A stretch of DNA of 64,000 nt from the NCBI GenBank assembly GCA_016211945.1, contig JACRHV010000004.1:263472-327471 (forward strand), read 5' to 3'. Made by a program: the position numbers and the translations under genes. The notes under the pieces were generated by a model. The model saw nothing but the letters and a program-made list of their open reading frames with translations. It had not been told where the DNA came from and did no database searches. The DNA is from Minisyncoccota bacterium. Its GTDB lineage: Bacteria > Patescibacteriota > Microgenomatia > UBA1400 > UBA12028. Each line of letters begins with the position of its first letter. Position 1 is the stretch's first letter. Of this stretch, positions 7,783 to 59,802 are shown in pieces.

Positions 7783-9167
7783 GTTTTCTCCGTTTGTGTA
7801 GGATCTTTCAAAAAGATACGAAGAAGCGTTCGCGTGACAACAATACCAGTAAATAATCCTACAAGAATTCCCAAGGCTAGGGTAAGTGCGAAACCCCGAA
7901 CCATACCGCTACGATTCAAAAACTCAAACTCAAACGGATTAAAAAGAATGAAACTTGTAAATAGTGTTGCAACGTTTGCGTCTTTAATACTGTCCCACGC
8001 TCGGCCAAATCCCAATCGCATTGCTAGATCGAACGGCTTGCCCAGTCGCAGTTCTTCCTTCATCCGTTCAAAGATTAAAATATTACTGTCCACCACCATC
8101 CCAATAGACAACAAAAGACCGGCAATACCGGGTAATGTTAAGGTAATTGGCATCAATTTATAGATCGCAATCGTGATGAGGGCGTACATCGCAAGTGCGA
8201 GATCGGCCAACATACCTTTCCAGCCGTACAACAGAATCATAAAAAGCGCGACCAACCCAACACCGATAAGTCCAGCACGAGCCGTCTTCTCAACAGCTTC
8301 TTTTCCTAAACTCGCGCCAACCGTTTCCTGCTGCACAACCTGAATTGGGACCGGCAAGGCGCCTGCATTTAACTGCACACTAAGTTGTTTTGCTGACTCA
8401 ACAGTAAACCCGCCACTAATTTCTGCGATCCCACTCAAAATCGCCTCGTTCACACTCGGAAGTGTCACCGGAAAATCATCCAAAAAGATACCCACGCGTT
8501 TTCCAACATTACGTGCGGTGATTTCACCAAACTTTTTCTTCCCTTCATCGCTAAACTCCAAGGTCACAATCGGCTGTGCATTTTTACTACTGAACTGCAC
8601 TCCCGATCGTTTTAAGTCTTTCCCTGTCAACCCCGTGGGGAGAAAGTTCGCAAACGGATCTTGCTGAACTTGTGCTTGAGTCTGAGGTTTTGCCGACTGT
8701 GTAGACTCTTCACGAAAATCAAGTTGCGCCGTCGTACCAATCAATGCAACTGCCTGCGACGCATCGGTTACTCCAGGCAATTCCACAATAATACGATAGG
8801 TATTACCTGAAAACGATGTCTTAATAGTAGACTCACTCACACCATACAAATCAACACGACGAGCAATAATTTCGCGCGCACTTTGAAATGCAGACTCTCT
8901 ATCTGTTTGCGCAATCTTGCTCATATCTGCTTCTAGCACCACACGCGTTCCGCCTTGAATATCCAAACCCATCTTTAACTCCAAATCGCGCTTAAACGGG
9001 ATGTTATACTTTGATAAATCGAGAGCAGGTCGATCAAACTGATTCGAAATATCGATATTTTTCCAATGCAACTCAATAGGTACTTTTGCGGGCAATGCAA
9101 TAACCAAACATACAGCAGCCAAAAGAATAAGAAACACCAGTGTTTTTAATGGCAGTTTGTTTTTCAT
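7779..9167 (-). CDS. secD: protein translocase subunit SecD
   Basis: 462 aa with a periplasmic domain plus a C-terminal 6-TM SecDF-type region (GIAGLLLSIGMVVDSNILIFERM). Confidence 0.9.
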   Translation of the reverse strand: MKNKLPLKTLVFLILLAAVCLVIALPAKVPIELHWKNIDISNQFDRPALDLSKYNIPFKRDLELKMGLDIQGGTRVVLEADMSKIAQTDRESAFQSAREIIARRVDLYGVSESTIKTSFSGNTYRIIVELPGVTDASQAVALIGTTAQLDFREESTQSAKPQTQAQVQQDPFANFLPTGLTGKDLKRSGVQFSSKNAQPIVTLEFSDEGKKKFGEITARNVGKRVGIFLDDFPVTLPSVNEAILSGIAEISGGFTVESAKQLSVQLNAGALPVPIQVVQQETVGASLGKEAVEKTARAGLIGVGLVALFMILLYGWKGMLADLALAMYALITIAIYKLMPITLTLPGIAGLLLSIGMVVDSNILIFERMKEELRLGKPFDLAMRLGFGRAWDSIKDANVATLFTSFILFNPFEFEFLNRSGMVRGFALTLALGILVGLFTGIVVTRTLLRIFLKDPTQTEKT

Positions 9168-9763
9168 GGGAGCGCTGGTTTTCTTGAAAGCATGTCCTCT
9201 TCGTCACCAATCACCATGACGCGTGGAAGTTCAAGGATGCCGATTAAAAACGGATCGCGACGTGTTTTGCGAAACTCAAGTTCTTCCTCGCTCATCACCG
9301 TGTAGTTTATTTCACGCCCACGAGTTTTTTCCTCTTCTCGTACGAGCGCCGCTAGCTCCGGTAAAACAATATCACCGACAACTAAAATATCCACCTCATC
9401 GTGCATACGCTGTTCGTGTTTGGCAAACTTTCCGGTAAACATCACATATTTCACTGTTCCTAATTTTTTCCGATTTTTTTTGATTTCATGTCCCAAACCA
9501 GTGGTTTTTGCAACCAAACGGGTGAGCTCTGAATAAAACTCGTATCCACGATTGAGTGTGTAGTATTTGCGATTTCCACGATCTTCACATCGCACCATGC
9601 CGGCTGTTGTCATACGATCAAGCTCGCGACGAACAGCATTAATCTCCTCGTCAATCTTTCGCGTCATCTCACGCACATACCACATTTCACTGGGATTCTC
9701 GAAGAAAAGTTGGAACAATTTTACGCGGACCTTGGACAAGATAAAATCTGATAACTCTGCCAT
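9164..9763 (-). CDS. winged-helix DNA-binding protein with a C-terminal nucleotidyltransferase-like region; putative regulator
   Basis: N-terminal wHTH-like segment (KVRVKLFQLFFENPSEMWYVREMTRKIDEEINAVRRELDRMTTAGMV). C-terminal D-x-D-containing segment (DEVDILVVGD). Its stop overlaps the secD start (ATGA at 9164-9167). Confidence 0.45.
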   Translation of the reverse strand: MAELSDFILSKVRVKLFQLFFENPSEMWYVREMTRKIDEEINAVRRELDRMTTAGMVRCEDRGNRKYYTLNRGYEFYSELTRLVAKTTGLGHEIKKNRKKLGTVKYVMFTGKFAKHEQRMHDEVDILVVGDIVLPELAALVREEEKTRGREINYTVMSEEELEFRKTRRDPFLIGILELPRVMVIGDEEDMLSRKPALP

Positions 9764-20798: not shown

Positions 20799-20904
20799 AG
20801 AGAAACATCTTCTTCTGTAGCGGATTGCATCAATCGTCTCATAATGAGATAATTGAACATATAAATGAGATGAAAGGAGGCCTTCCAAAGGTTGTAGATA
20901 TTTG

Positions 20905-21075
20905 AGCGTGTGGCCCAACATCTGTTGGGATACGAGGAATGGGTCTTTTACTCTGTAAAAGAAATCGGGCTTTTCTTTAATGAAAAGTATCTGCGGACAC
21001 CCATCGGTTGCTACAGTCGTAAGTTTTGTTTTAAATCTTTTCCGTAAGGAAAAGGACAGAGAACAGAAACACGTA
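20905..21075 (+). ncRNA. Putative glmS ribozyme (GlcN6P-responsive) in the glmS 5' UTR
   Basis: Begins AGCGUG. Conserved core ...GGGAUACGAGGAAUGGGUC (ACGAGGA as in UUGACGAGGA). GCGGACACCCAUCGG corresponds to GGCGGAUGCCUCCCGG, with AUGGGU/ACCCAU replacing GGAGG/CCUCC as a compensatory pair. ACAGUCGUAAG matches ACAGCCGUAAG. It lies 70 nt upstream of the glmS start. Confidence 0.6.
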
Positions 21076-21143
21076 GCCAAACCTTTATTCTTCATTTTTT
21101 TTCTTTTCTTTAACAGTGTTGAGCATTTTCACAAGGAGGTACT

Positions 21144-22910
21144 ATGTGTGGAGTTTTTGGATACATTGGTCATCGATCTAACGCAGCGTTATTGGTGTTT
21201 GAAGGATTAAAACGGTTGGAGTATCGCGGATATGATAGCTGGGGAGTTGTGGTTGTTGGTCGTGGAAAAATTTACGTGAAAAAGAAAACGGGGAAAATAG
21301 GTGGGGCAACAGTTGATGAGCTTCCACCTGGATCATTGGCAATCGGGCACACTCGATGGGCGACGCACGGCGGTGTGACGGAAAAAAACGCGCACCCACA
21401 CCTTGACTGTACACACACCATCGCAGTGATTCATAACGGCATTGTGGAAAATTACGAAAGCATACAAGCAGAATTGGTACACGCCGGACATCGTTTTGTG
21501 TCAGAAACTGATACCGAAATTATTGCTCATTTGTTGGAGTTTTATGCGCATAACATGTCATTTATTGAAGCGTTTGTGAAAACATTTCAGCGATTGGAGG
21601 GGCTCAATGCTATTGTAGCGATACATCATAAAGAAAGAGTTCTCGTCGCTGCAAAAAAGGGTTCTCCTCTTGTCATTGGTTTTGGAAAAAAAGAAAACTT
21701 TATTGCAAGTGATCCTTCCGCGCTTTTACCACATACAAAGGAAGTGTACTTTCTTGAGGATGGGCAGATGGCAGTTCTCCGTGATGCATCTGTTTCAGTG
21801 ATGGAGAGTGCGTCACAAAAGGTTGTGAAGTTTTCTACGCAAATTTTGGACTGGGATGTTTCTCAAACTCATAAAGGTGAGTTCCACCATTTCATGCTGA
21901 AAGAAATATATGAACAACCTCAAGTTGTTTTGGGTATTGCAGGAAGTGGAGGTGAGGAGGTTAAAAGGATTGTATCTTTGATACGGAAAACAAAAGATCT
22001 GTATTTTGTTGGATGCGGCTCAGCGTCTTACGCATGTTTAGCCGGAGCGTATCTTTTTTCAAAAATTGCTCAGAGGCGGGCGCATGCGATTGCTGGGAGT
22101 GAGTTTTTGTATCACCTGGATTTTATCAATACAAAAAGTGTTGTGGTGGCTTTATCCCAATCTGGAGAAACCATTGACACCTTAGAGTCTGTGTCTTATG
22201 CAAAAAGAAAGGGCGCGAAGATTGTGGCTTTGGTTAATGTCCTCGGATCCTCTCTGTATCGAGTAGCAGACGCGAAGATTTTGATAGGCGCTGGACCAGA
22301 AAAAGCGGTTGCATCAACAAAAGCTTTTATTGGCAAAATCGCGCATCTTATTTTGTTGGCGTACGCATTGGATAAACGAGTGAAGGAGGGGCAGGAATTG
22401 TTGCGTAAGTCCGCGGAGGTTATACGAGAGGTGTTGGCGGAAAAAAACAGCGATCGAATAAAGAAATTGGCGCATCGTATTTGCGGAGTGAACCACATTT
22501 TTATTCTTGGCAGAGGTCTTTCATATTCTGCAAGTTTAGAGTGTGCGATGAAGATCAAGGAAATCAGTTATATTCATGCCGAGGGTTTGGCGGCTGGAGA
22601 GCTGAAGCACGGCACCCTCGCCTTGGTTGAAAAGGGGACTCCGTGTATTGTCCTTCTCCCCAACGATGAGACGTATGCCGCAACATTGGCGGGAGCTATG
22701 GAGATCAAAGCGCGAGGCGGATATATCATTGGAATTTCACCAAAAAAAGAAGGTGTTTTTGATGAGTATTTGCCTATTGCCGATGTTGGAGATGCCAGCA
22801 TGATCCCCATGGTTGTTACCGGTCAACTCCTCGCATATTATTTGGCACTGGAACGAGGTCTTGACCCGGATATGCCGAGGAATTTGGCAAAGAGTGTGAC
22901 GGTGAGGTAG
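21144..22910 (+). CDS. glmS: glutamine--fructose-6-phosphate aminotransferase
   Basis: N-terminal MCGVFGYIG (Ntn Cys2), two SIS domains, 588 aa; preceded by AAGGAGGTACT. Confidence 0.9.
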   Translation: MCGVFGYIGHRSNAALLVFEGLKRLEYRGYDSWGVVVVGRGKIYVKKKTGKIGGATVDELPPGSLAIGHTRWATHGGVTEKNAHPHLDCTHTIAVIHNGIVENYESIQAELVHAGHRFVSETDTEIIAHLLEFYAHNMSFIEAFVKTFQRLEGLNAIVAIHHKERVLVAAKKGSPLVIGFGKKENFIASDPSALLPHTKEVYFLEDGQMAVLRDASVSVMESASQKVVKFSTQILDWDVSQTHKGEFHHFMLKEIYEQPQVVLGIAGSGGEEVKRIVSLIRKTKDLYFVGCGSASYACLAGAYLFSKIAQRRAHAIAGSEFLYHLDFINTKSVVVALSQSGETIDTLESVSYAKRKGAKIVALVNVLGSSLYRVADAKILIGAGPEKAVASTKAFIGKIAHLILLAYALDKRVKEGQELLRKSAEVIREVLAEKNSDRIKKLAHRICGVNHIFILGRGLSYSASLECAMKIKEISYIHAEGLAAGELKHGTLALVEKGTPCIVLLPNDETYAATLAGAMEIKARGGYIIGISPKKEGVFDEYLPIADVGDASMIPMVVTGQLLAYYLALERGLDPDMPRNLAKSVTVR

Positions 22911-22925
22911 AAAGAGTTAAAAATT

Positions 22926-23243
22926 TTAACCAATTATAATCATCTTTTCATCAACTGCTTTGTCCAATACATCTCGACCGAATTTTCGGGCAATGAGCAT
23001 TGCATCCCCAGTGAGTACTCTATTTGCTTGGGGGCTTTTTATAACAACACCTTGTTTTGCCTGTTCAAACGCCTCCGAAAAAAGCCTCCAACGATCATTA
23101 AAATTTTCCTTATTGATGGGTAGCACTGGCTCAATTACTCGAGTATCTATTGAATGTCTTATTCTAAGAGTTCCATTTCCAACTTGACCTAGCCCGACTC
23201 CATCAAGTTCGTGGCGTGTACCATCTGCTTCATTAGTTGACAT
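22926..23243 (-). CDS. hypothetical protein (about 105 aa)
   Basis: Track ORF 22926..23276. The internal ATG (MSTNEADG...) is preceded by AAGGAG and preferred. Convergent with glmS. Confidence 0.3.
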   Translation of the reverse strand: MSTNEADGTRHELDGVGLGQVGNGTLRIRHSIDTRVIEPVLPINKENFNDRWRLFSEAFEQAKQGVVIKSPQANRVLTGDAMLIARKFGRDVLDKAVDEKMIIIG

Positions 23244-23320
23244 AGTAAACTCCTTACTTTTTTTAGATGAAGACATTGTATCACCTAAGTGGAATTAAGT
23301 GTGATAAAAAGCGCTTTTTG

Positions 23321-23394
23321 TGACCCCATCCGGATTTGAACCGGAGATCTTCAGGATGAGAACCTGACGTCCTAGGCCGCTAGACGATGGGGCC
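23321..23394 (-). tRNA. tRNA-Glu (anticodon CUC)
   Basis: Hand-folded cloverleaf of 74 nt. Acceptor GGCCCCA/UGGGGUC, D-stem GUCU/GGAC, anticodon stem UCAGG/CCUGA with loop UUCUCAU, T-arm UCCGG-UUCAAAU-CCGGA, discriminator A. CCA not encoded. Confidence 0.85.
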
Positions 23395-23473
23395 AATACC
23401 AAACTTCTCTGGAATTATACACGAAATCTAGTTACTTTCCATCGCTCCACATCAGGAAAATCGCAGTTTGTTT

Positions 23474-23509
23474 TTTGTAAGCTAATTGTAAGATTCGGCT
23501 GATACAGTG
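23474..23509 (+). promoter_or_regulatory. Conserved 36-nt element, copy 1 (TTTGTAAGCTAATTGTAAGATTCG + GCTGATACAGTG)
   Basis: 24/24 nt identical and 8/12 of the next 12 identical to the sequence at 56166-56201. Contains the tandem heptamer TTGTAAG-N4-TTGTAAG and a TAAGAT -10-like hexamer. Ends 6 nt before the ATG at 23515. Lies about 80 nt from the 5' end of the divergent tRNA-Glu. Confidence 0.5.
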
Positions 23510-23514
23510 CTTCT

Positions 23515-24594
23515 ATGAAACTCCTCATTCTTCTTGTATTCTTTTTTGTTTTTCCATCCATAACGCACGCATACTTCACAACATTCGAAACACTACTCAA
23601 CAATACGGTCTCTGTTCTCGACTGGATCCCGCCACAAACATTTCTCTACATTCAATCTCCCACAAACGAACAAAAACACATTGAGGAGCTCATCATAAAC
23701 AACACATTTGATGCTGATCTCACTGGCTGGGAAACGAGTGGACATATTTTTATTCCGGAAAAGGGAGTTGTCCAGCTTGGATCAAAAGATGACACAACCG
23801 AAGGTGTACACACTTTACGTCAAACGATTCCATCTACAGCACAAGCACTCACGTTTTCATATCGCATAGGAACGCAGGAAACACTTGAGGGATTTGATGA
23901 TCCTGCATTTGTTGTAACACTAAACACTACACCAGTGTTTTCTGCATCATGGAAAGATGCATCTGAGAACTGGAGAACCGCCTCTATTAATCTTTCAGAA
24001 TTTTCTGATCCTATACTAATACTCCAATTTTCTGTTCAAAATACCGGAGATGCGCTTAACCCCACTTGGGTTCAACTAAAAAATATCACCACAAACATTG
24101 GACTCGTCAATACGACACAAAAACTTTCTTTTTCAACTTCTGATGCGCATCCAACACAGACCTATACACAAGAATCGTCAGACGCACTTCCACAACTTTA
24201 CCGCAATCCCTTTTCGTTCACACAAACTTTAGAGAAAAATATGCTGCATTTTTGGAGCATTGATCAAGAAAATAATAATGAAATACCACAAGAAAAATCC
24301 ATTTTCTTCAATCAGACCCCACCTCCTCCTTTCACCATCCTCTCTCTTGATCACCAACCGCACGATGAATATGTTTTCACAATAGCAAATGAACAAGGCA
24401 GACCAGGGAATCAAACCGCGTACACACTTCACCTGCCAAATCAAAACATTCATCCGTTTGCCCTGGATTATCCCGACGATCACACCGAGCGATTATTCTT
24501 TCGCTTCCCTCCAAATCACATCCCCACCCAAGCCTCACTTGAATACCGTGATTCATTTGGGAACACAGCACAAAAGGAAAACATTCTCTTATGA
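23515..24594 (+). CDS. secreted protein with an N-terminal CBM-like (jelly-roll) segment
   Basis: Signal peptide MKLLILLVFFFVFPSITHA. NNTFDADLTGWETSGHIF...VQLG resembles the start of CBM4/9/22-type carbohydrate-binding modules. N/T/Q-rich thereafter. The stop overlaps the next ATG (ATGA). Confidence 0.45.
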   Translation: MKLLILLVFFFVFPSITHAYFTTFETLLNNTVSVLDWIPPQTFLYIQSPTNEQKHIEELIINNTFDADLTGWETSGHIFIPEKGVVQLGSKDDTTEGVHTLRQTIPSTAQALTFSYRIGTQETLEGFDDPAFVVTLNTTPVFSASWKDASENWRTASINLSEFSDPILILQFSVQNTGDALNPTWVQLKNITTNIGLVNTTQKLSFSTSDAHPTQTYTQESSDALPQLYRNPFSFTQTLEKNMLHFWSIDQENNNEIPQEKSIFFNQTPPPPFTILSLDHQPHDEYVFTIANEQGRPGNQTAYTLHLPNQNIHPFALDYPDDHTERLFFRFPPNHIPTQASLEYRDSFGNTAQKENILL

Positions 24595-25241
24595 ATGAAA
24601 ACTCATCCCAAACCATCCGACTTAAACACGGTGAAACAAAAGATGTCGCGATTCGCATACATAACACTTTTCAACGAAAAGCAAACGCCGCGGTAGAACT
24701 CGTTTCATACAAAGAATCAACACCTTTTTTATCAAAAAATATTACAATTTCTATTCGCCAGTCGCCGGAATCAGAAGCTCTTATATATGGGCCTGCAACA
24801 TTCGCTGAGTTTGCAAGTCAGGGATATACAGTGTTGGAAACATTGGAACCAGGAGAAATTCGGCAATACATTCTACAAACTTCTCTTAACGCAAACACTC
24901 CAAACACTTTTCAAGATCATTCGCTCACTTACGACTTCCGTTTGGGGACAGAGGAACTTTTACCACCACCATCTCCAACATCTCAAATCGCATTTATTTC
25001 TCCTCCATTTTCATCTCCCATACTTTCGGCAACGGCAAAAATAATACGCCAATCTCCTTCTCCCTCACCAAATCCTGCTTTTTCCCTTCAGGTCCTCGGC
25101 GCCACATCACAATCTACAAGTCTCCGAGCGTCTCCTTATCAAAAACCGTCGTCGTTCCTTTTTATTTTCATTCTTTTTGTTGCTTCGCTTCTTTTCCTTC
25201 TCGTTCTGCGTGACTATGTCCGTCACCGTAAACAGCCGTGA
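24591..25241 (+). CDS. cell-surface protein: no signal peptide, S/P-rich linker, C-terminal TM plus basic tail
   Basis: Ends ...PSSFLFIFILFVASLLFLLVLRDYVRHRKQP (TM + RHRK). The N-terminal 120 aa show a beta-rich pattern with loose resemblance to TasA/camelysin-type domains (QDHSLTYDFRLG). Translationally coupled to the upstream secreted protein. Confidence 0.4.
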   Translation: MNENSSQTIRLKHGETKDVAIRIHNTFQRKANAAVELVSYKESTPFLSKNITISIRQSPESEALIYGPATFAEFASQGYTVLETLEPGEIRQYILQTSLNANTPNTFQDHSLTYDFRLGTEELLPPPSPTSQIAFISPPFSSPILSATAKIIRQSPSPSPNPAFSLQVLGATSQSTSLRASPYQKPSSFLFIFILFVASLLFLLVLRDYVRHRKQP

Positions 25242-25293: not shown

Positions 25294-26145
25294 ATGATCT
25301 CTGTGCTTGCCCATCTTTTCACACCACAGCACTCCAATCATCAGCGACCCCGAATTCTTCATCCGGAGGGATTTGTCGTTCTCATCGCCATTGCACTCAG
25401 TGCGCAAGTTTTTATTACCAGACTCGTTCCAGTTACTCCTTTTGAAAAAATATTAGGATATTCATCAAGCATTACTGCTTCACAAGTCCTCGAAGAAACA
25501 AACAATAAACGAAAAAACGAAGGACTTCCACCTCTCACATTGAATGAGAAACTCTCAAACGCTGCAGTGGCAAAAGCAACGTACATGTTTGACCACCAAT
25601 ATTGGTCGCACACAGCACCGGATGGCACAACGCCATGGAACTTCATTCAAAAATCTGGGTATTTATACAATATCGCCGGTGAAAATCTTGCACGAGATTT
25701 CGGAGACACTACAAGCATGATTTCAGCATGGATGAACTCTCCAACGCACAGAGCAAACATTCTTCAAAAAAAATACAGTGATATCGGCATCGCCGTTCTT
25801 GACGGAAAACTCCAAGGAATAGAGACAACACTCGTTGTTCAAATGTTTGGCTCACCATCCATCGTTCAAGCAAAAACGAGTGATGAGGGGGCAACACACA
25901 CATTCAGCAATGCGTCTGTTCTCGCGGACGTGAGTACATCACTTCCTATGTATTCCCCGCATGATTTAACACGGGCAGTATCGTTCGCCATCGTTCTGCT
26001 CCTCGTGTACATTCTTGCGTATGATATGGTTGTTGCGCGTCGAAAAAATGTAGTTCGTGTTGTTGGAAAAAACCTCGCACATATTCTTCTTTTTAGCGTG
26101 ATCTTCGGCATTCTTCTCATATCACAGGGGGGGTCGTTGTTATGA
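25294..26145 (+). CDS. CAP/SCP-like extracellular domain protein (YkwD-like) with a C-terminal membrane anchor
   Basis: NKRKNEGLPPLTLNEKLSNAAVAKATYMFDHQYWSHTAPDG...ISAWMNSPTHRANILQKKYSDIGIAV matches a CAP domain. N-terminal TM and a C-terminal hydrophobic segment. Confidence 0.6.
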   Translation: MISVLAHLFTPQHSNHQRPRILHPEGFVVLIAIALSAQVFITRLVPVTPFEKILGYSSSITASQVLEETNNKRKNEGLPPLTLNEKLSNAAVAKATYMFDHQYWSHTAPDGTTPWNFIQKSGYLYNIAGENLARDFGDTTSMISAWMNSPTHRANILQKKYSDIGIAVLDGKLQGIETTLVVQMFGSPSIVQAKTSDEGATHTFSNASVLADVSTSLPMYSPHDLTRAVSFAIVLLLVYILAYDMVVARRKNVVRVVGKNLAHILLFSVIFGILLISQGGSLL

Positions 26146-29363: not shown

Positions 29364-29471
29364 AGAATAATAGTACCAAATATTGGACGAACATGGGGAA
29401 GAAATTCGCCTCCTTCTTTCCCTTGACGAAAAACATCCTGCCTGGTAATGTACGCGTGTCACCCAATCATT

Positions 29472-29840
29472 ATGGCTAAACGATCATCACAATCAGTTGC
29501 ACCGGAGTTAGAGCGTGAGTTATATGCGGCCTTTTTTCAAATGCTCGCTGATATGCGAAACGCGAAAGAGGTTGAGACCTTCTTGAAATATTTTCTTAGC
29601 GAATCTGAATTATCTATTTATACAAAACGATTTGCCGTCGCGGTTATGCTTGAACAGGGGAAGAGTTACGAATACATTCGGGATTCGTTGAAAGTATCGT
29701 CCGCAACAATCTCATCTATAGCGGAACACCTCCGCTCTGACGGTATTTCACTCGCACTTCATAAATTGAAAGTGGAACGATGGGCCGATGTAATGAGTGA
29801 TAAACTTATGCAAATGTTCGGTGGAAATCCAAAAAGATAA
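29472..29840 (+). CDS. TrpR-like YerC/YecD family DNA-binding protein
   Basis: ELSIYTKRFAVAVMLEQGKSYEYIRDSLKVSSATISSIA matches the YerC/YecD Trp-repressor-like helix-turn-helix. Confidence 0.55.
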   Translation: MAKRSSQSVAPELERELYAAFFQMLADMRNAKEVETFLKYFLSESELSIYTKRFAVAVMLEQGKSYEYIRDSLKVSSATISSIAEHLRSDGISLALHKLKVERWADVMSDKLMQMFGGNPKR

Positions 29841-29891: not shown

Positions 29892-31313
29892 ATGAAATAC
29901 TTTATTACCGCAGCCATTCCGTATGTCAATGCCAAACCGCATATTGGCCACGCTTTGGAGTTTGTTCAAGGAGATGTTATTGCTCGATATCATCGAATAC
30001 TTGGACATGACACGCTCTATTTGTGCGGAGCAGATGAGAATGCATTGAAAATTGTTCAAGCCGCTGAGAAGGCTGGCATGGAGGTTCTTCCTTTTTGTGA
30101 TGCCAACGCAAACCTCTTCCAATCACTCATGAAAAAACTTGATGTTCAACTCGATATATTCGAACGTGCAAGTTCAGAATCGCATCACATTTCAAGTAAA
30201 AAACTTTGGGAGTTATGCGAAAAAAATGGCGACATTTACAAAAAAGCATACCAGGGGTTGTACTGTGTGGGTTGTGAAGCGTTTTACACACAAGAAGAAT
30301 TAAACGAAAATGGTGAATGTTTCGAACATCCTGGAAAGAAACTTGATGTTGTAACCGAGGAAAACTATTTTTTCCGTCTATCACGGTATAAAAACCAGAT
30401 TCTTAAGCTTATTGAGTCAGATGGGGTTCACGTTGTGTCTGAAATACGGAAAAATGAGATGATTGGTTTCCTCAACGGCGATGTTCAAGACATTAGTATT
30501 TCACGGTCAAGAGAGCGCGCAAGAAACTGGGGAGTGGAGGTTCCAAAAGATCCGTCTCAAATGATGTACGTCTGGTTTGATGCGCTCAACGTGTATCAAA
30601 GTGGAGTTGGATTCGGTACAGATGAGAAGCAATACAATACATGGTGGCCGGCAGATGCCCACCTGATTGGAAAAGGAATACTCCGATTTCACGCGGTGTA
30701 CTGGATTGCAATGCTGCTTTCTGCGGGGCTATCGCTTCCGAAAGAAATTTTTGTTCACGGATATATCACAATTGGCGGGCAAAAGATGAGTAAAACACTC
30801 GGAAATGTCATTGATCCTCTCGATCTTATTCAAACATTTGATATTGATCCATTGCGATATTATTTCTTGCGCGAGATGTCCAGTATAGACGACGCGGATT
30901 TTACCATTGAACGAATGAGTGAGGTTTATCAAGCTCATTTAGCAAACGAGCTAGGAAACCTCGTTTCACGCTTGGCGAAACTTTGCGAATCACTTCCACT
31001 TCAAATATTTGAAGTGCCCACGAGTTTTACAAAACAGGTAGCGCAGTACATCGTACAGTTTGCATTGAAAAATGGTATTGATCATATTTGGGATCGCATC
31101 GTATTAATAAACAAAACACTTACCGACACCAAACCGTGGGAAAAAGATGAAAAAGAGAAAATAACACTTCTTGCCCCACTTGTTCAGGAGCTCATTCAAG
31201 TTGGATATGATCTTCAACCATTTCTGCCAAACACCGCTGAAAAAATCATGCGACGATTCGCCGGATCACGTATCACTGCATCCGAACCGTTGTTTCCGAA
31301 ACGAACATCGTAA
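29892..31313 (+). CDS. metG: methionyl-tRNA synthetase (short form)
   Basis: HIGH motif PHIGHALEF; KMSKS motif KMSKTLGNVIDP; zinc-knuckle-like CVGCEAF...C. Confidence 0.9.
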   Translation: MKYFITAAIPYVNAKPHIGHALEFVQGDVIARYHRILGHDTLYLCGADENALKIVQAAEKAGMEVLPFCDANANLFQSLMKKLDVQLDIFERASSESHHISSKKLWELCEKNGDIYKKAYQGLYCVGCEAFYTQEELNENGECFEHPGKKLDVVTEENYFFRLSRYKNQILKLIESDGVHVVSEIRKNEMIGFLNGDVQDISISRSRERARNWGVEVPKDPSQMMYVWFDALNVYQSGVGFGTDEKQYNTWWPADAHLIGKGILRFHAVYWIAMLLSAGLSLPKEIFVHGYITIGGQKMSKTLGNVIDPLDLIQTFDIDPLRYYFLREMSSIDDADFTIERMSEVYQAHLANELGNLVSRLAKLCESLPLQIFEVPTSFTKQVAQYIVQFALKNGIDHIWDRIVLINKTLTDTKPWEKDEKEKITLLAPLVQELIQVGYDLQPFLPNTAEKIMRRFAGSRITASEPLFPKRTS

Positions 31314-31320
31314 TACATTT

Positions 31321-32109
31321 ATGATTATTGACACACATGTTCACTATAACCTTGAACCTCTTTTTCCTGACTGGAAAATACATTGGGAAGAAGCGCAAAA
31401 ACATGACATCAAAAAATCGGTGATTATTGGCACAGACGAAGAAACAAATGCACGTGCAATCGCGATCGCAGAGAGTCAAGAACACCTTTATGCCGCTCTC
31501 GGAATCCACCCCACTGAGCAATTTTCGGAATCAGAGTGTCTGTCTTCTTTCTCAAAATTAGAAAGGCAAATACGTCAATCAAAAAAAATTGTCGCGATTG
31601 GGGAGTGTGGACTCGATTTCTTTCGATTACCGGTGGACAAGAAACAAAAAGAGGAAGAGAAAAAGAGACAGTGTGAGCTTTTTCAAAAACACATAGAGCT
31701 CGCGCATCAACACAAGCTTCCCCTCGTCATTCATTGCAGAGATGCACACCAGGAGCTTATTGAAACACTTTCATCATTTGAAGTGCAGAAATTCGTTTTG
31801 CATTGCATGTCAGGAACTCTCGAATATCTTCAGCAGGCAATTGCACTAGGCGGGTATATCAGTTTTGCAGGAAATATTACATATAAAAATGGCGACCATC
31901 TTCGCGAACTTGTAAAGATAACGCCAAAAAATCGTTTACTTGTTGAAACCGATGCTCCGTATCTCCCTCCGTCGCAATGGAGAGGTCAAATAAATATTCC
32001 CAAATACATTACGGAAACCGTCAATACGCTTACTGCCATACTTGGCATCTCTGTTGATGAATGCAGAACAATCACAACACAAAATGCGGAGCACTTCTTT
32101 CACATATGA
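31321..32109 (+). CDS. tatD: TatD-family metal-dependent DNase/hydrolase
   Basis: MIIDTHVHYN N-terminus, GECGLDF, HCR/HCM histidine motifs. The stop overlaps the next ATG. Confidence 0.85.
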   Translation: MIIDTHVHYNLEPLFPDWKIHWEEAQKHDIKKSVIIGTDEETNARAIAIAESQEHLYAALGIHPTEQFSESECLSSFSKLERQIRQSKKIVAIGECGLDFFRLPVDKKQKEEEKKRQCELFQKHIELAHQHKLPLVIHCRDAHQELIETLSSFEVQKFVLHCMSGTLEYLQQAIALGGYISFAGNITYKNGDHLRELVKITPKNRLLVETDAPYLPPSQWRGQINIPKYITETVNTLTAILGISVDECRTITTQNAEHFFHI

Positions 32110-38685: not shown

Positions 38686-38753
38686 ACTATTCGATCACTC
38701 GATTGACAACGCTTCGTTTTTCCCCAAGAACTTGGTACAATAGCCTCGCCTGT

Positions 38754-38828
38754 AAGGCATCGTGGCGCCGTACCAGAGCGGTCTAATGGCGAGGTCTGCA
38801 AAACCTTCGATCCGCCGGTTCAAATCCG
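38754..38828 (+). tRNA. tRNA-Cys (anticodon GCA)
   Basis: 75-nt cloverleaf. Acceptor GGCGCCG/CGGCGCC, anticodon stem GAGGU/ACCUU with loop CUGCAAA, T-arm GCCGG-UUCAAAU-CCGGC, discriminator U73 as expected for tRNA-Cys. Confidence 0.8.
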
Positions 38829-38840
38829 GCCGGCGCCTCA

Positions 38841-40169
38841 ATGAAAAGAGATCATAACACTTCCGAAACTCTGAAAATTGAGTCTGGAGGCCCCTTAAAA
38901 CGAATTTTGCGAAGAGATTTTTTAGCAACTCCCTTTTCATTTCTTCGCGCCACCTCAGCAGAAAAAATGTTAAGCGAGAAAAAAGATCTTGCCTTCATCA
39001 CTGCACTAGAGCTTTACAAAATTCCAAAAAGGCAATTTCTTGCGCTTGCCACTTTAATTTCGGGCGTATTAGGTATGGGTGCTGTGGGAGTTGATCAATT
39101 GGTGTTTGATGGTGCTTTCCAAGACCTTATGCTACAGGCACTTGCTAAACCCGAGTTAAGAGAAAAATTACTAGAAATTGTCGTTGAAGGAAAAGCTCCA
39201 CAAAAATTGCGCGAGGAATTCTATGAAAAAATGACTCCTTATATCCCTGATTATAAGTTGGGAGGGAAAGAAAATCTTGATGAACCAAATTTGGATAAAG
39301 GTTTCTCTTCTTACGAAATTAGGCATGTCGTAAGTGCTGGTAAGGAAAATCCTCAACTCTTACTCATCGCCACGTTAAAGAAAAACGGAGCTGTTGTTGT
39401 AACAGAAAAAACAGAGGATGATCGCTTAAATCTTACAGAAACTCAAAATAAATTTGGGCCATTCTTCGCCATTCCAAGTTCACAACTTTCAAAAAAAGAG
39501 GGTGTAATAGAAATTTCCACATACTCATCCTACATGACAGAGTCCGGAAAATTAATAACATATGGTATGGAGAACAAAAAAATAAGTAGTGGTGCATTAG
39601 TCTTACTTAATGATGGAGAGATTCTTGTTATAGATAAAAGTGAGATTGATCAATATGTCACTGGGAAAAATTGTAAAGCAATTCAAACATTTGTTCTAGC
39701 TATTCAAAGCACAACACTTAGTCATGATATGGCAAGTATTGATTCCGCAATGTTTAGAAGAACCAGTGTGAGTGGCATAGCGGCTGTCCCGTATGAATGT
39801 TTTGTCGCGACATTTTACAAATCAGGTGGAATAAAAGAAACAAAAATAATTTCTGTCTATGAACCACTCATCTCCTCCCCTTCTTCAAACTCGTCTTCGA
39901 CCAATCGTCTGTGGTATGTAGGAATATCGATTGAACAATGTGTGAGTGTATGCAAACAACTTCAAGATGAAGGAGGATTTGATCGATTTACATTTATCGT
40001 CCCAGATCCACATTATATCCACTCAAAGTTAATAGGTCCTTTCGAAGATTCTGAGAAAAAATCACTTCGTGTTTTTGGAAAGGATATGCCAGGTACATAT
40101 ATTGAAAAAGAAAATCGTGGACTTAAGTATTATCCACCAGTATTTTTAGCATTGAAATTGAAGCCTTGA
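38841..40169 (+). CDS. hypothetical protein (up to 442 aa); AT-rich
   Basis: Track ORF begins 10 nt after tRNA-Cys; the start may be the Met at about 38967. No recognisable domain. Visibly lower GC than its neighbours. Confidence 0.35.
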   Translation: MKRDHNTSETLKIESGGPLKRILRRDFLATPFSFLRATSAEKMLSEKKDLAFITALELYKIPKRQFLALATLISGVLGMGAVGVDQLVFDGAFQDLMLQALAKPELREKLLEIVVEGKAPQKLREEFYEKMTPYIPDYKLGGKENLDEPNLDKGFSSYEIRHVVSAGKENPQLLLIATLKKNGAVVVTEKTEDDRLNLTETQNKFGPFFAIPSSQLSKKEGVIEISTYSSYMTESGKLITYGMENKKISSGALVLLNDGEILVIDKSEIDQYVTGKNCKAIQTFVLAIQSTTLSHDMASIDSAMFRRTSVSGIAAVPYECFVATFYKSGGIKETKIISVYEPLISSPSSNSSSTNRLWYVGISIEQCVSVCKQLQDEGGFDRFTFIVPDPHYIHSKLIGPFEDSEKKSLRVFGKDMPGTYIEKENRGLKYYPPVFLALKLKP

Positions 40170-41353: not shown

Positions 41354-41734
41354 CTAAACAGCTGCCGAAAGTAAGCCTAAACCAGCAAGCTCTTGCAATA
41401 TAGATCGCTGAATTGTACGCATATCTTTTTTAACTAGTTGTAAAGCATACTCAGATACTTCTGCTTTAAATGATGGATCTGTACTGCCCGATACAACTGT
41501 TAAAAATATTCTTGGTACTGATTCCTTTGCTTTATTTGCGAGTGTTCTCAGCTCCTCCTGTGCAATATCAATAAAAACAGCGTATATTGCTGACCCCATA
41601 GACACCTCTGCCTCTTGAAGAGAGGCTGCTTCAACAACATCCAAACCTTGAGATTTACAAATTCCTGCAACAATTGATCTCCATTGTGGATCAGCATCCG
41701 CCACAAGTATTTTCCGTCCTTCTCCGTTAGTCAT
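41354..41734 (-). CDS. stand-alone receiver-domain (CheY-like) response regulator
   Basis: KILVADADPQ..., AVFIDIAQ (phospho-acceptor Asp), TVVSGS, LVKK. Start ATG at 41732-41734 preceded by GGAAAGGAGAAGT. Overlaps the pgk stop by 8 nt. Confidence 0.6.
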   Translation of the reverse strand: MTNGEGRKILVADADPQWRSIVAGICKSQGLDVVEAASLQEAEVSMGSAIYAVFIDIAQEELRTLANKAKESVPRIFLTVVSGSTDPSFKAEVSEYALQLVKKDMRTIQRSILQELAGLGLLSAAV

Positions 41735-42725
41735 ACTTCTCCTTTCCTTGTACCGCCTCAATTCCCGGTAACGTTCCATATGCAACATAATCCAACATCG
41801 CTCCACCACCAGATGAAATAAATGATATTCCTTTTCGCACTTTCAATATTGAAAGTGCCGCTTCCGTGTCGCCACCACCAACCACCGTGTATCCCTTTGT
41901 TCCAGCAAGTAAATTTCCTATTGCACGCGTTCCGGATCGGGAAGCTGCATCCTCGAACTTACCCATAGGACCGTTCCACATAATGGTCTGACCCATTGAG
42001 ATAAATCGGGCGAATTGTTCTACAGTTAACTTAGAAATATCTTTTCCGTCCTTCGTTAACACTCCGACAATCAATTTTCTATTCTCAATGGGATGCTTTA
42101 TTAACTCAACAGCCAACTTTCCACCAACTAAGATGACATCGGCCTTATCCTGCAGTGCCTTAATAATCGGCAATTTTGTTTCGATTTTTGCACCACCAAG
42201 TATCGCAATAAATGGGCGTTTTTGATTCGTAATTAATGGTGCCAACCCTTTCAGTTCCTTCTCGAACTGCAGACCAAAATACGTGGGAAGAATCTGCGGA
42301 ATAAAGGTAATTGAGGTGTGTTTCCTATGTGAAGAGGCGAATGCGTCGTTCACATACATGTCGTGCCCTTTCGCTAATTCCTTTGCGTAGGGAAGTGAGC
42401 CGGACTCTTCTCGTTTATCATATCGAAGATTTTCTAACACACGGAACTCAATTGTTTTTGGAATCTTCACTGTTTTCAGTAATAACTTTTCAACTGGCTT
42501 TAAAGATAGCTTGGAAACTTTTTTTCCTTCTGGGCGCCCACGGTGACCGATCACGGTAATCTTTTTCGCGTCATGATCAATGAGGTACTGAAGTGTTTGT
42601 GCGCCATCGGAAAGGCGTGTTGTATCAAACTTTCCTTTTTCCAACGGGAGATCGAGGTCTAAGCGGACCAAGACGGACTTTCCACGAATATCCACACTAT
42701 GAAGAAAATGGCCCATGGCGGGCAT
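41727..42725 (-). CDS. pgk: phosphoglycerate kinase
   Basis: N-terminal KSVLVRLDLDLPL, hinge and C-terminal GGGDTEAAL region. Short (332 aa) but full-fold. Confidence 0.85.
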   Translation of the reverse strand: MPAMGHFLHSVDIRGKSVLVRLDLDLPLEKGKFDTTRLSDGAQTLQYLIDHDAKKITVIGHRGRPEGKKVSKLSLKPVEKLLLKTVKIPKTIEFRVLENLRYDKREESGSLPYAKELAKGHDMYVNDAFASSHRKHTSITFIPQILPTYFGLQFEKELKGLAPLITNQKRPFIAILGGAKIETKLPIIKALQDKADVILVGGKLAVELIKHPIENRKLIVGVLTKDGKDISKLTVEQFARFISMGQTIMWNGPMGKFEDAASRSGTRAIGNLLAGTKGYTVVGGGDTEAALSILKVRKGISFISSGGGAMLDYVAYGTLPGIEAVQGKEKYD

Positions 42726-49219: not shown

Positions 49220-50485
49220 GTGTATTATTTAAGCATGAAATACCTGATCCTTATACTTGTCTTTGCTTTTGCAGTACGCATGTATCATCTGACAACGCCC
49301 CCCACTTACTATTTTGATGAGGTATATCATGCCGTAACCGCGAAACTGTATGCACGCAACGATCCTGCGGGGTATGAGTGGTGGCATCCCGCACCCGAGC
49401 CAGACACTGCTATTGAATGGCTTCATCCTCCCCTCGCAAAACTCACACAGGCAGTTGGAATTGTTTTGTTTGGGGAGAACGCGATGGGATGGAGAATCTC
49501 ATCAGTTGTATTTGGTTTGGGAGTGATCGTACTGACATATGTATTGGCACTTCAAATATTCAAAGTGGAACGTATTGCCCTGCTGTCAGCATTACTTGTA
49601 AGTATTGATGGTCTACTCTTCACACAATCGCGTATCGCAATGAATGATATTCATGTTGTTTTCTTTATCCTTCTTTCACTTATTACGTATCTCAATTGGA
49701 AAGAACAGAAGATTTCACAAAAGAAACTCTTATTGTTGTCAGGTATTGCTGCGGGACTTGCTATCTCAACAAAGTGGAGCGGTATTTTCGTTCTTGGAAT
49801 TTATGGTGTCGATCAACTTCTTACATGGATAAAGGCATGGAAACTCCCAAATTTTCGAGTTATGTTCCACTATACATTCGCTTGGATCATTATTCCATTT
49901 ATTGTCTACATCATTTCGTATACCCAATTTTGGCTACAAGGACACACAATTGATCAGTTTATTGAACTTCATAAACAAACTTGGTATTACCAGACGCATC
50001 TCACGGCAACTCATACATATCAGTCTACACCCCTGCAATGGGTATTTGATCTCAGACCTGTGTGGTTCCACGTACAGTATGAATCTGGGAAAATCGCAAA
50101 TATTTATGATCTCGGCAACCCATTACTGTTATATGGTGGGTTTGTCGCTCTTCTGTATCTTTTTGCACAGAGTATTCACAAGTTTGAGTGGAGAAAATGG
50201 TTTCTTGTTCTCTCGTATTTCGGAGTATGGTTTGTGTGGATGTGGTCACCACGCATCATGTTTTTTTATCATTATGCGCCTGCTATTCCCCTCCTCAGCA
50301 TTGCGTTCGGATGGTGTATACATGATCTCACAAAAAAGAAAACCATTCTTCTTACGACGTTTGGATACCTCCTTATTTCACTGAGCATTGTATGGTTTAT
50401 CGTGTTTTATCCAAACATGGTCGGGCTTTTTGTTCCCATTGAGTTTGCTGAAAAAGTTTATTTTGCAATACCCGGGTGGAGATAA
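49220..50485 (+). CDS. PMT-family (GT39) polyprenyl-phosphate-mannose-dependent protein O-mannosyltransferase-like protein
   Basis: Loop 1 YYFDEVYHAVTAKLYARNDPAGYEWWHPAPE...HPPLAKL with the DE motif characteristic of PMT/GT39. Confidence 0.65.
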   Translation: MYYLSMKYLILILVFAFAVRMYHLTTPPTYYFDEVYHAVTAKLYARNDPAGYEWWHPAPEPDTAIEWLHPPLAKLTQAVGIVLFGENAMGWRISSVVFGLGVIVLTYVLALQIFKVERIALLSALLVSIDGLLFTQSRIAMNDIHVVFFILLSLITYLNWKEQKISQKKLLLLSGIAAGLAISTKWSGIFVLGIYGVDQLLTWIKAWKLPNFRVMFHYTFAWIIIPFIVYIISYTQFWLQGHTIDQFIELHKQTWYYQTHLTATHTYQSTPLQWVFDLRPVWFHVQYESGKIANIYDLGNPLLLYGGFVALLYLFAQSIHKFEWRKWFLVLSYFGVWFVWMWSPRIMFFYHYAPAIPLLSIAFGWCIHDLTKKKTILLTTFGYLLISLSIVWFIVFYPNMVGLFVPIEFAEKVYFAIPGWR

Positions 50486-55974: not shown

Positions 55975-56017
55975 ACATCAAGATTATCCTAAGTGGGTCG
56001 ATTTATCAATCCTTTTG

Positions 56018-56090
56018 TCGGGGTGGTGAGACTCGAACTCACGACCTCCGCACCCCCAGCGCGGCGCTCTACCAACTAAGCCACACCCCG
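56018..56090 (-). tRNA. tRNA-Pro (anticodon GGG)
   Basis: 73-nt cloverleaf. Acceptor CGGGGUG/CACCCCG (C1:G72 as typical for tRNA-Pro), anticodon stem CCGCG/UGCGG with loop CUGGGGG, T-arm GUGAG-UUCGAGU-CUCAC, discriminator A. Confidence 0.8.
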
Positions 56091-56165
56091 AACTTTTGAC
56101 ATTCTACCACGCCCCTAAATTTTCTGATTATTACGTAGTCTCACTCAAGAAAAACCACTTTCCCT

Positions 56166-56201
56166 TTTGTAAGCTAATTGTAAGATTCGCGTGATATTGT
56201 A
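56166..56201 (+). promoter_or_regulatory. Conserved 36-nt element, copy 2 (TTTGTAAGCTAATTGTAAGATTCG + CGTGATATTGTA)
   Basis: Near-identical to 23474-23509. Ends 8 nt before the ATG at 56210. About 75 nt from the 5' end of the divergent tRNA-Pro. Confidence 0.5.
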
Positions 56202-56209
56202 TCTGCAGA

Positions 56210-56425
56210 ATGAAAATATATTCTGACCATATTCCTCATACTATATTTCAGCCGACGCGAGGAATGACGTTGTATTTTTACGACATAAGTAAACTTTTCT
56301 TCGGTGGATTTTTTCTTACGGGTATTCTTCAGGGGTATTTTTTCTATGCTATGATGGGAATAATCTTATCGATTCTCGTCTTTGTTGTAGCAAAATATTT
56401 GGAGGTTTTATGTGGGAATCCGTGA
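56210..56425 (+). CDS. small membrane protein (71 aa)
   Basis: ORF-track entry. Two hydrophobic helices (LFFGGFFLTGILQGYFFYAMMGIILSILVFVVA). Confidence 0.3.
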   Translation: MKIYSDHIPHTIFQPTRGMTLYFYDISKLFFGGFFLTGILQGYFFYAMMGIILSILVFVVAKYLEVLCGNP

Positions 56426-56544
56426 TAAAAGATTTAACAAGTGTTCCCGTTGTTATGGCATTGGGAATGACGTTTTTCCTCATGGTTTTTGCAAGCATGA
56501 CTACATACGTCGCACACAAGGACCGTGAAAAACTAAAGAAATAA
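56410..56544 (+). CDS. small membrane protein (44 aa)
   Basis: ATG preceded by TTGGAGGTTTT. Translation MWESVIKDLTSVPVVMALGMTFFLMVFASMTTYVAHKDREKLKK. Not in the ORF track. Overlaps the end of the 71-aa ORF by 16 nt. Confidence 0.3.
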   Translation: MWESVIKDLTSVPVVMALGMTFFLMVFASMTTYVAHKDREKLKK

Positions 56545-56574
56545 ACATATCTATTCTGCCCAAGAAGGAGATGT

Positions 56575-57660
56575 ATGCCGCCAACAAAAACAGTAACGCA
56601 AGTAAAACATGACGATTCACCTCAAGTATCGTTGAAGAATCAACGACTCCAGGCTGTTGCTATTGCAATGCAACAGATCGATAAAACGTACGGCAAGGGA
56701 TCAATCATGAAGTTGGGCGAGCGTATGCAAAATCAAGAAGTTATCCCAACAATCTCCACAGGATCTATTGCACTTGACGTTGCGCTCGGCGTTGGAGGTC
56801 TTCCTCGAGGGAGAATTGTTGAGATCTATGGACCGGAGGCCTCGGGAAAAACAACGGTTTGTCTTCATGTTATTGCAGAAGCACAAAAGCATGGTGGCAC
56901 TGTCGCGTTTATCGATGCTGAACATGCGCTCGACCCACAACGTGCGGAAGAAATCGGCGTGAATCTCGATGAACTCCTCATTTCTCAGCCAGACAATGGG
57001 GAACAGGCACTTGAGATCACCGAAACACTTATTCGTTCCGGTGGAGTAGATGTCATTGTTGTGGACTCGGTGGCGGCACTCGTTCCAAAAGCAGAACTTG
57101 AGGGAGATATGGGCGATGCTGTCATGGGCATGCAAGCACGCCTGATGTCCCAAGCACTGCGCAAACTGACCGCCGCCATCAGTAAGTCAAAAACACTGCT
57201 CATCTTCACAAATCAACTCCGCATGAAAATTGGTGTGATGTTTGGCAACCCAGAAACAACAACTGGTGGACAAGCGTTAAAGTTTTACTGCTCTGTTCGC
57301 ATAGATATGAGAAAAATTGGGAATATTCAAGAGGGTGACGTTATTGTGGGAGGGCGGCACAGAGCAAAAATTGTAAAGAATAAAGTAGCTCCTCCATTCC
57401 GCACCGCAGAGTTTGACATCATGAATAAAGGAGGAATATCAAAATCTGGAAGCGTTGTTGATGTTGCCGCAGAGCTTGGGATTCTCGAGAAAGCGGGAAG
57501 TTTCTTCAAATATAAAGGTAATGTGCTCGCTCAGGGTCGTGAAGCACTCAAGCTAGAACTCGAGAAAAACTCAAAACTACTTCTTGAATTAGAAAGCACT
57601 ATTCGTGAAAAAATTAAGCTCGGAAATATGCCTCGAGATGTTAAAGAAAAGATTGATTAA
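56575..57660 (+). CDS. recA: recombinase RecA
   Basis: GPEASGKTT Walker [24 protein letters not shown] loop L2 region, 361 aa. Confidence 0.95.
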
Positions 57661-59526: not shown

Positions 59527-59802
59527 ATGACAAAATCTGATCTTGTCGATATCGTTGCAAAGAAAGCACATCTCACAAAGAAAGCTGCCACAGATTCTGT
59601 GGAAAGTTTCCTTGAAGAAGTTATGCGTGCATTAAAAAAAGGTGAAAAGGTTGTACTTTCAGGATTTGGCACATTTTACCTTGGCAAAGTAAAGGACAAA
59701 CAAGTTGTCCCATTTGGAAAAGAAGACAAGCGACAAACTATTAAAGGTCATCGCGTTGTAAATTTCCGTGTTGGAAAACCACTGAAAAAGAATGTGTGGT
59801 GA
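59527..59802 (+). CDS. hup: DNA-binding protein HU
   Basis: MTKSDLVDIVAKKAHLTKKAATDSVESFLEEV..., GFGTF, RNPKT-like arm region. 91 aa. GAAGGAG SD. Confidence 0.9.
   Translation: MTKSDLVDIVAKKAHLTKKAATDSVESFLEEVMRALKKGEKVVLSGFGTFYLGKVKDKQVVPFGKEDKRQTIKGHRVVNFRVGKPLKKNVW

Follow-up and report, generated by a model that had tools for sequence, protein, structure and literature searches.

A tandem TTGTAAG box at the -35 position of two predicted leaderless promoters, one of them serving a recA operon, in a Patescibacteria genome

The stretch of DNA analysed here comprises 64,000 nucleotides (nt) of contig JACRHV010000004.1 (positions 263,472 to 327,471 of the forward strand; this whole stretch is called the window, and its first letter is position 1). 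It belongs to a bacterium of the Candidate Phyla Radiation (CPR, or Patescibacteria) with a G+C content of ~42%, and it contains two intergenic regions that share one short element. At the first of them (locus 1), a tRNA-Glu(ctc) gene on the minus strand (23320–23394) stands back to back with a plus-strand gene pair (23515–25241) encoding a secreted protein of 359 amino acids (aa; 23515–24594) and an overlapping 216-aa protein (24591–25241). At the second (locus 2), a tRNA-Pro(ggg) gene (56017–56090, minus strand) is the divergent neighbour of a plus-strand operon (56210–57660) that consists of a gene for a 71-aa DUF6722 membrane protein (56210–56425), a 44-aa open reading frame (ORF; 56410–56544) and recA (56575–57660). 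Sequence comparison and a repeat finder place the same 25-nt block, TTTTGTAAGCTAATTGTAAGATTCG, on the plus strand of both regions—at 23473–23497 and at 56165–56189—and the promoters to which this block belongs are the subject of the present study.

An earlier note on this DNA had reported a 24-nt identity between positions 23474–23497 and 56166–56189, which we confirmed and found to extend one base further in the 5' direction. The 24-mer, TTTGTAAGCTAATTGTAAGATTCG, has exactly these two matches in the 64-kb window; no third match appeared there even when up to three mismatches were allowed, and none at all was obtained in 100 dinucleotide-preserving shuffles. The similarity of the two copies continues upstream more weakly (41 nt at 85%, as delimited by the repeat finder), and on the 3' side of the identical block 7 of the next 12 nt match, one fewer than first counted. 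Both copies stand shortly 5' of an ATG-AAA start, as the note had seen, with the 36-nt element ending 5 nt before the ATG at 23515 and 8 nt before the ATG at 56210 rather than at the 6–9 nt given there. The separation from the 5' end of the divergent tRNA, put at about 75–80 nt, was measured as 80 nt (Glu) and 76 nt (Pro).

The core of the block is an 18-bp box built from the tandem heptamer TTGTAAG-N4-TTGTAAG, present just as the note had described it: two TTGTAAG half-sites in direct orientation, separated by the spacer CTAA and phased at 11 bp, with the same sequence at both loci. Copy 1 of the box (23475–23492, plus strand; half-sites 23475–23481 and 23486–23492) is identical in a related locus, L022, and copy 2 (56167–56184, plus strand; half-sites 56167–56173 and 56178–56184) has orthologous boxes upstream of recA in relatives. 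In both cases exactly 10 bp lie between the end of the box and a predicted -10 hexamer. At locus 1 this is the TACAGT (23503–23508) of the extended -10 TGATACAGT (23500–23508, plus strand), which ends 6 nt before the ATG; at locus 2 it is the TATTGT (56195–56200) of the extended -10 TGATATTGT (56192–56200, plus strand), which ends 9 nt before the ATG. The box spans about -40 to -23 of each predicted promoter. The earlier note had instead taken TAAGAT, within the block, for a -10-like hexamer, and had concluded that the block does not reach a -35 position. TAAGAT is probably not the -10, to judge from the relatives, in which it is not kept as TAnnnT whereas the downstream TACAGT/TATTGT keeps its position; this conserved -10 falls inside the partly matching 12 nt. 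With the -10 assigned to the downstream hexamer, the block therefore covers the -35 position, where it replaces the -35 hexamer. A sigma-70 consensus scan returned no -35/-10 pair on the plus strand of either locus, and the TTGTAA hexamers, at 11 and 22 bp from the -10, fall outside the usual sigma-70-family spacing of 15–19 bp. On both grounds we rejected an alternative-sigma promoter, which had been one of the options proposed initially.

Promoters that consist of little besides a -10 are not peculiar to the two box loci. Of 28 operon-first genes in the window, 12 lack a Shine-Dalgarno sequence and show a TAnnnT hexamer that ends 5–9 nt ahead of the ATG (background frequency 7%), and eight others carry a clear Shine-Dalgarno sequence; leaderless, -10-only promoters are thus common in this genome. 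Both box loci fit the leaderless-type class, with a TGn-extended -10 in each case, and the mRNAs from both promoters are predicted to be leaderless or nearly so. The position of the two hexamers relative to the start codons lends support, at the level of prediction, to the near-leaderless transcripts that had been suggested before.

We then compared the box with its counterparts in a footprint set of eight distinct recA loci from relatives, whose RecA proteins are 83–88% identical, together with L022 for locus 1. The gene order at recA—tRNA-Pro on the minus strand, box, DUF6722 (where present), recA, rny and hup—is retained in all eight loci, and a clear box is found in six of them. It is degenerate in the remaining two (L061 and L064), whose sites were recognised partly through their geometry and constitute weak evidence. 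Written as half-site/spacer/half-site, followed by 10 bp and the -10 hexamer, the sites read TTGTAAG/ctaa/TTGTAAG with TACAGT in L022; TTGTAAG/ctta/TTGTAAG with GATACT in L067/68; TTGTTAG/aatt/TTGTAAG with TATAGT in both L057/58 and L059/60; TTGTAAT/cgtt/CTGTAAG with TATAAC in L063; and CCGTAAG/gtgt/TTGTTCG with TACACT in L062, while L064 and L061 hold degenerate versions. In all ten sites, from the window and the relatives, the gap between box and -10 measures 10 bp, and its sequence varies. The 11-bp phasing of the half-sites is likewise kept in all orthologous sites; the half-sites stay near yTGTWAG, and the 4-nt spacer between them varies (CTAA, CTTA, AATT, CGTT, GATT, GTGT or TTTT). Information content is highest at the two heptamers, at the 2–3 bases after the second heptamer and at the -10, which is TGn-extended in seven of the ten promoters. 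Among the relatives, the distance from tRNA to box ranges from 45 to 118 nt and that from the -10 to recA from 115 to 450 nt. Moreover, the DUF6722 gene is absent from L067, where the box and the -10 persist and now stand directly upstream of recA, with a leader of ~120 nt. Judged by this pattern of sequence conservation, the block is a real, conserved cis-regulatory site, and the idea of a shared regulatory site, as opposed to generic promoter similarity, gains support from the box conserved in relatives. As a separate observation, L057 contains a 63-aa DUF6722-like ORF (9561–9752) that starts 9 nt after the -10 and was missed by the source annotation pipeline, probably because it is leaderless and has no Shine-Dalgarno sequence.

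The box is confined to few places. Copies with up to two mismatches occur in the window at chance frequency, no other promoter in the window carries it, and in the relatives it was seen at orthologous positions only. A third candidate site on the minus strand (14454–14437, ATGTATG-tttt-TTGTAAG followed by 10 bp and TATGAC) lies inside the nth coding region and was set aside as a chance-level match. Scans for the 18-mer across 185,579 species genomes (genome_contigs) and across metagenome_contigs gave 20 and 34 matches, respectively, with ~17 expected by chance in genome_contigs according to our estimate; none of these matches came from CPR bacteria and none included the flanks.

The location of both copies beside a divergent tRNA, and the retention of the tRNA-Pro adjacency in relatives, might point to an upstream activating site for the tRNA genes; a fragment of a mobile or repeated element and an RNA element of the 5' untranslated region are related proposals. 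This set of explanations is largely refuted, and we hold it to be very improbable. Each tRNA has a promoter of its own: that of tRNA-Glu, found by consensus scan, reads TGGAAA-16-TATAAT preceded by TG (23414–23441, minus strand) and is conserved in L022, and that of tRNA-Pro, read from the sequence, has the extended -10 TGGTAGAAT (56101–56109, minus strand), which takes the form TGnTAnAAT in relatives. The distance between box and tRNA, and with it the helical phase, varies among relatives, in contrast to the fixed gap between box and -10, which makes the upstream activating sequence considered in the earlier note unlikely. Folding z-scores from -0.07 to 1.07, near 0 on both strands, together with a predicted start downstream of the box, speak against an RNA element. 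As for the repeated mobile element that the same note had named as a case that would undo its reading, we found two copies only in 64 kb, no inverted repeats, and no plasmid or phage matches.

The identity of the two copies raises a different possibility. They are identical even in the 4-nt spacer and in the 5 nt after the box, positions that are variable among relatives; identity at such free positions therefore points to common descent or homogenisation of a module of ~45 nt, which also takes in TGATA..GT and ATGAAA. This promoter module was probably copied or homogenised within the lineage, and L022 shows that the CTAA spacer at locus 1 predates the split of these two organisms. Taken further, the argument would hold that the module, spread by duplication or gene conversion, needs nothing beyond RNA polymerase, serving as an unusual upstream promoter element with no dedicated regulator of its own. 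We find this hard to credit: relatives preserve the half-sites but not the spacer between them, the pattern left by a protein that contacts the heptamers; no other promoter of the window has the box; and TTGTAA at 11 and 22 bp is impossible for -35 recognition. Copying of the module and a shared regulator can go together, and the former does not take the place of the latter as an explanation.

At locus 2, recA starts 30 nt after the 44-aa ORF and has its own Shine-Dalgarno sequence; rny (57868–59457) and hup (59527–59802) come after it. Since the box and the -10 are retained upstream of recA in relatives, even where DUF6722 is missing (L067), copy 2 is, on comparative grounds, the conserved promoter of the DUF6722-recA operon. 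The earlier note had placed the second copy at a junction with a small membrane protein; that gene does follow, but the site is not only that, being the promoter of the operon that includes recA. A further motif in this operon, TCTGCC(C)A, lies immediately 5' of the Shine-Dalgarno sequence, ~20 nt ahead of the recA start codon (about 56548–56556 in the window); it is kept in five lineages, including L061, L063, L064 and L067, and is absent in L057 and L059.

The link with recA, the gene most commonly regulated by LexA, brings in a damage-responsive repressor, of the LexA type or another, whose dimer would sit on the direct repeat across the -35 region and block RNA polymerase at both the recA-operon promoter and that of the secreted proteins until DNA damage lifts the block. 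We consider this unlikely, though it deserves serious attention. The relatives examined retain the box ahead of recA, even the one without DUF6722; most box promoters, having an extended -10, could initiate transcription with no activator; and small membrane proteins that share a transcript with recA are similar to division inhibitors induced by damage. LexA motifs also vary, and those of Alphaproteobacteria, GTTC-N7-GTTC, are likewise 11-bp-phased direct repeats in recA promoters (PMC8565304). The Gram-positive SOS box GAAC-N4-GTTC was found neither upstream of recA in the window nor in seven relatives, and its matches in the window are at chance level; LexA, if acting, therefore uses another motif, and a distinct LexA motif of Patescibacteria has been reported, according to a citation in PMC8565304. 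Against a LexA-type repressor, tblastn in 215 kb of CPR DNA gave no lexA homologue, the Alphaproteobacterial half-site is unrelated to the one described here, and a repressor needs no fixed distance to the -10, so that a gap of exactly 10 bp in every lineage, next to segments that vary, is unexpected. In addition, we know of no described LexA half-site that reads TGTAA, and the identical 18-mer of a Firmicute, discussed below, accompanies an OmpR-type two-component system, not LexA.

The fixed 10-bp gap favours a factor that contacts the polymerase, and the box is very probably a transcription-factor site at the -35 position, as predicted from sequence. The explanation that we prefer, to which we assign a probability of roughly 0.55, is that the box forms the operator core of two promoters that would undergo Pho-box-like class II activation by an OmpR/PhoB-type response regulator. 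A head-to-tail dimer of a winged-helix regulator would bind the two half-sites and, once bound, touch or compete with RNA polymerase at the -35 position, thereby placing the operon for secreted or surface proteins and the DUF6722-small ORF-recA operon under one signal; an OmpR/PhoB-family regulator could substitute for -35 recognition as PhoB does at the Pho box. For the direction of control, we lean slightly towards an activator rather than a repressor. The assignment of the predicted binder to the OmpR/PhoB type, drawn by analogy, is more tentative, with odds somewhat short of even.

Several observations weigh against this explanation. A TGn-extended -10 can fire without a -35 or an activator, and the missing -35 is therefore no proof of activation, given that seven of the ten promoters are so extended and that other promoters of the genome also do without a -35. 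The half-sites end in G, a base excluded by the WalR consensus (in which H means not G), and the two weakest orthologous sites, L061 and L064, add little independent support. Moreover, an OmpR-family regulator would not normally be expected at recA, a classic target of LexA or PafBC. Histidine kinases are wholly absent from 19% of CPR metagenome-assembled genomes (MAGs; PMC10805038), although in favour of such a regulator CPR genomes usually carry some two-component systems, if few, with an average of 0.16 histidine kinases per 100 genes in Microgenomatia (PMC10805038). In the 64-kb window, Pfam searches revealed neither a response regulator nor a histidine kinase nor any other cognate regulator, and tblastn found none in 215 kb of CPR DNA. 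The Pfam and NCBIfam scans of the ~55 window proteins yielded only a weak ArsR-like winged-helix protein (9164–9763) and a YerC/TrpR-like protein (29448–29840), and nothing ties either of these to the box. A literature search found no mention of TTGTAAG repeats as a binding site. A bolder version of the activator model is a lineage-specific regulon of Pacebacteria and their relatives—recA, small membrane proteins and a surface-protein operon under a tandem-binding winged-helix activator that takes over -35 recognition at leaderless promoters, with no canonical LexA box—which we regard as speculative and rather doubtful. If true, CPR bacteria would have their own equivalent of PafBC-type sigma adaptation, or of a competence regulon, one that links DNA repair or uptake to the cell surface.

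The 359-aa protein of locus 1 (hypothetical protein HZA34_02345 at NCBI, from a Candidatus Pacebacteria MAG, on a 331-kb contig) has a signal peptide, and its gene is predicted to be leaderless, with the A of the ATG as +1. A CAP-domain protein (25294–26145) comes next, behind a leaderless-type -10 of its own. Profile scans assigned no known function to the 359-aa, 216-aa or CAP-domain proteins, and the predicted structure of the 359-aa protein is unusable at a pLDDT of 44. Its sole homologue found, 61% identical, is that of L022, where the intergenic arrangement is the same, the box is identical, and the -10, TGGTACAGT, stands at the same position and differs only at the free position of the TGn motif. 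On the other side, the gene 3' of tRNA-Glu on the minus strand (HZA34_02335, 105 aa) is an orphan that starts at 23243, with AAGGAG upstream.

Other features of the window were recorded alongside. A palindromic 20-mer, CACTT-N10-AAGTG, with CACTTCAAATATTTGAAGTG as its best copy, has six copies with exact arms (317–336, 29755–29774, 30997–31016, 31766–31785, 41838–41857 and 49548–49567), more than in any shuffle, and one copy with a single mismatch (23282–23301). It also occurs in relatives (L022 at 6401, L057 at 7493, L059 at 7587, L062 at 4351, L063 at 9381, and L065 at 1719 and 4940), and most copies are located within the 3' portion of a gene or a short distance before the following one; the motif could represent another operator or a hairpin family. 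The two genes that come after tRNA-Glu and tRNA-Pro on the minus strand share a 9-mer, CCACTTAGG (23283–23291 and about 55990–56000, minus strand), in their promoter regions. The copy at locus 1 belongs to the one-mismatch version of the palindrome; relatives, which have a different neighbouring gene, do not keep the 9-mer. The mechanically called ORF starts are sometimes too long, the true start of nth being the ATG at 14399. Downstream of tRNA-Cys (38764–38841), the promoter of which, TGGTACAAT, lies at 38733–38741, the ATG of a 442-aa ORF follows after only 2 nt, and 3' processing of the tRNA would leave an essentially leaderless mRNA for this ORF. A glmS ribozyme (20894–21080; Rfam RF00234, 56.9 bits) precedes glmS (21144–22910), and phosphoglycerate kinase (41354–42725, minus strand) seems to be divided between two overlapping ORFs, of 332 and 151 aa, which could reflect a frameshift or an assembly error.

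There is almost no experimental knowledge of transcription control in CPR bacteria, and the present analysis offers a testable motif, yTGTWAG-N4-yTGTAAG-N10-TAnnnT, whose promoter geometry is defined and whose targets number at least two operons, that of recA among them. Scans of complete CPR genomes with this motif can delimit the regulon, and the regulator should be traceable either by a site for its own autoregulation or by its co-evolution with variant boxes (TTGTTAG/aatt, for example). Additionally, the frequent leaderless promoters help to correct the annotation of start codons and promoters, for example those of nth (14399) and HZA34_02335 (23243).

Comparison with known systems bears on what kind of protein might read the box. 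One candidate is a PafBC-like sigma adaptation, in which an activator, possibly with a WYL domain, would sit between sigma region 4 and a -26 element, let the housekeeping polymerase work at promoters that have no -35, and form part of a LexA-independent DNA-damage response. The proximal half-site, as TGTAAG-N10-TAnnnT, fits the geometry of tGTCgg(N10)tA(N3)T exactly (TGTnnG-N10-TAnnnT in shared positions), its element lies at -28 to -23, a -35 is missing, and recA is among the targets, as in PafBC control (PMC8635444). We nevertheless think it improbable. The near-invariant GTC triplet is GTA or GTT in nine of the ten proximal half-sites, with L061 as the exception; PafBC uses one DNA-reading helix-turn-helix at a single element, whereas the box has two equivalent, phased half-sites 11 bp apart; profile scans found no WYL-domain protein encoded in the window; and PafBC is known from Actinobacteria only, a different phylum.

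WalR/VicR offers a second comparison. Its consensus, TGTWAH-N5-TGTWAH, consists of direct hexamer repeats with the same 11-bp phasing, and TGTAA or TGTTA here matches five of the six positions per half; WalR targets are, moreover, typically secreted cell-envelope proteins, as at locus 1 (PMC9210968, PMC4168254). The sixth position, however, is G in both halves of the box, and the one half-site that agrees with the consensus is the first of L063 (TGTAAT); recA is not a known WalR target, and no walRK genes were seen. In WalR-activated genes, the sites usually lie upstream of a normal -35.

The architecture of the Pho box comes into view next. Here two direct repeats of 7 bp (CTGTCAT) enclose 4 bp of A/T-rich spacer, and PhoB contacts sigma-70 and recruits the polymerase (PMC4447250, PMC4415409). 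Direct repeats of 7-4-7 layout, phased at 11 bp and with a TGT(A/T)A core, are a classic hallmark of sites for OmpR/PhoB-family winged-helix response regulators. Like it, the box described here is an 18-bp direct repeat of 7-4-7 layout with a mostly A/T-rich spacer, 11-bp phasing and a TGT core, and occupies the -35 position with 10 bp left before the -10. The pstS promoter of E. coli, the sequence of which we checked, reads CTTACATATAACTGTCAC followed by 10 bp and TATTTT, the last of which we take to be its -10. The two systems differ in the half-site (TTGTAAG rather than CTGTCAT), in the targets, which here are recA and secreted proteins and not phosphate genes, and in the leaderless nature of the promoters predicted here; no PhoB/PhoR was found in the DNA searched, that is, the window and 215 kb of CPR DNA.

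Finally, the 18-mer TTGTAAGCTAATTGTAAG occurs twice in one Lachnospiraceae MAG (JAZQMK01; L008 276–293, minus strand, and L014 4227–4244, plus strand), each time 10 bp upstream of a -10 (TAGAAT and TAATAT). One of these copies follows, at a distance of 87 nt, a gene pair for an OmpR-family response regulator and its histidine kinase partner, and precedes an ABC transporter. The regulator has Response_reg and Trans_reg_C domains, and its best solved relative is the PhoB-family protein of entries 5dcl/5dcm, presumably the lantibiotic-resistance regulator NsrR. By this analogy, an OmpR-family regulator plausibly reads exactly this 18-mer elsewhere. The 18-mer is also present in L015 (3450–3467, minus strand) and in ~15 gut metagenome contigs (Intestinibacter/Clostridium), and in Intestinibacter and relatives it occupies a conserved site upstream of an LPG_synthase_TM membrane-protein gene. 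This presumed box of a BceR/NsrR-like regulator in Lachnospiraceae, which to our knowledge has not been published, belongs to a distant phylum, precedes Shine-Dalgarno-led mRNAs and owes its proposed function to context alone; it shares with the box of the window the identical 18-mer, its occurrence in two copies and the 10 bp before the -10. Taken together, the site belongs to a known class—the tandem direct-repeat box in place of a -35—and what is new is its setting, in leaderless CPR promoters that include the one of the recA operon.

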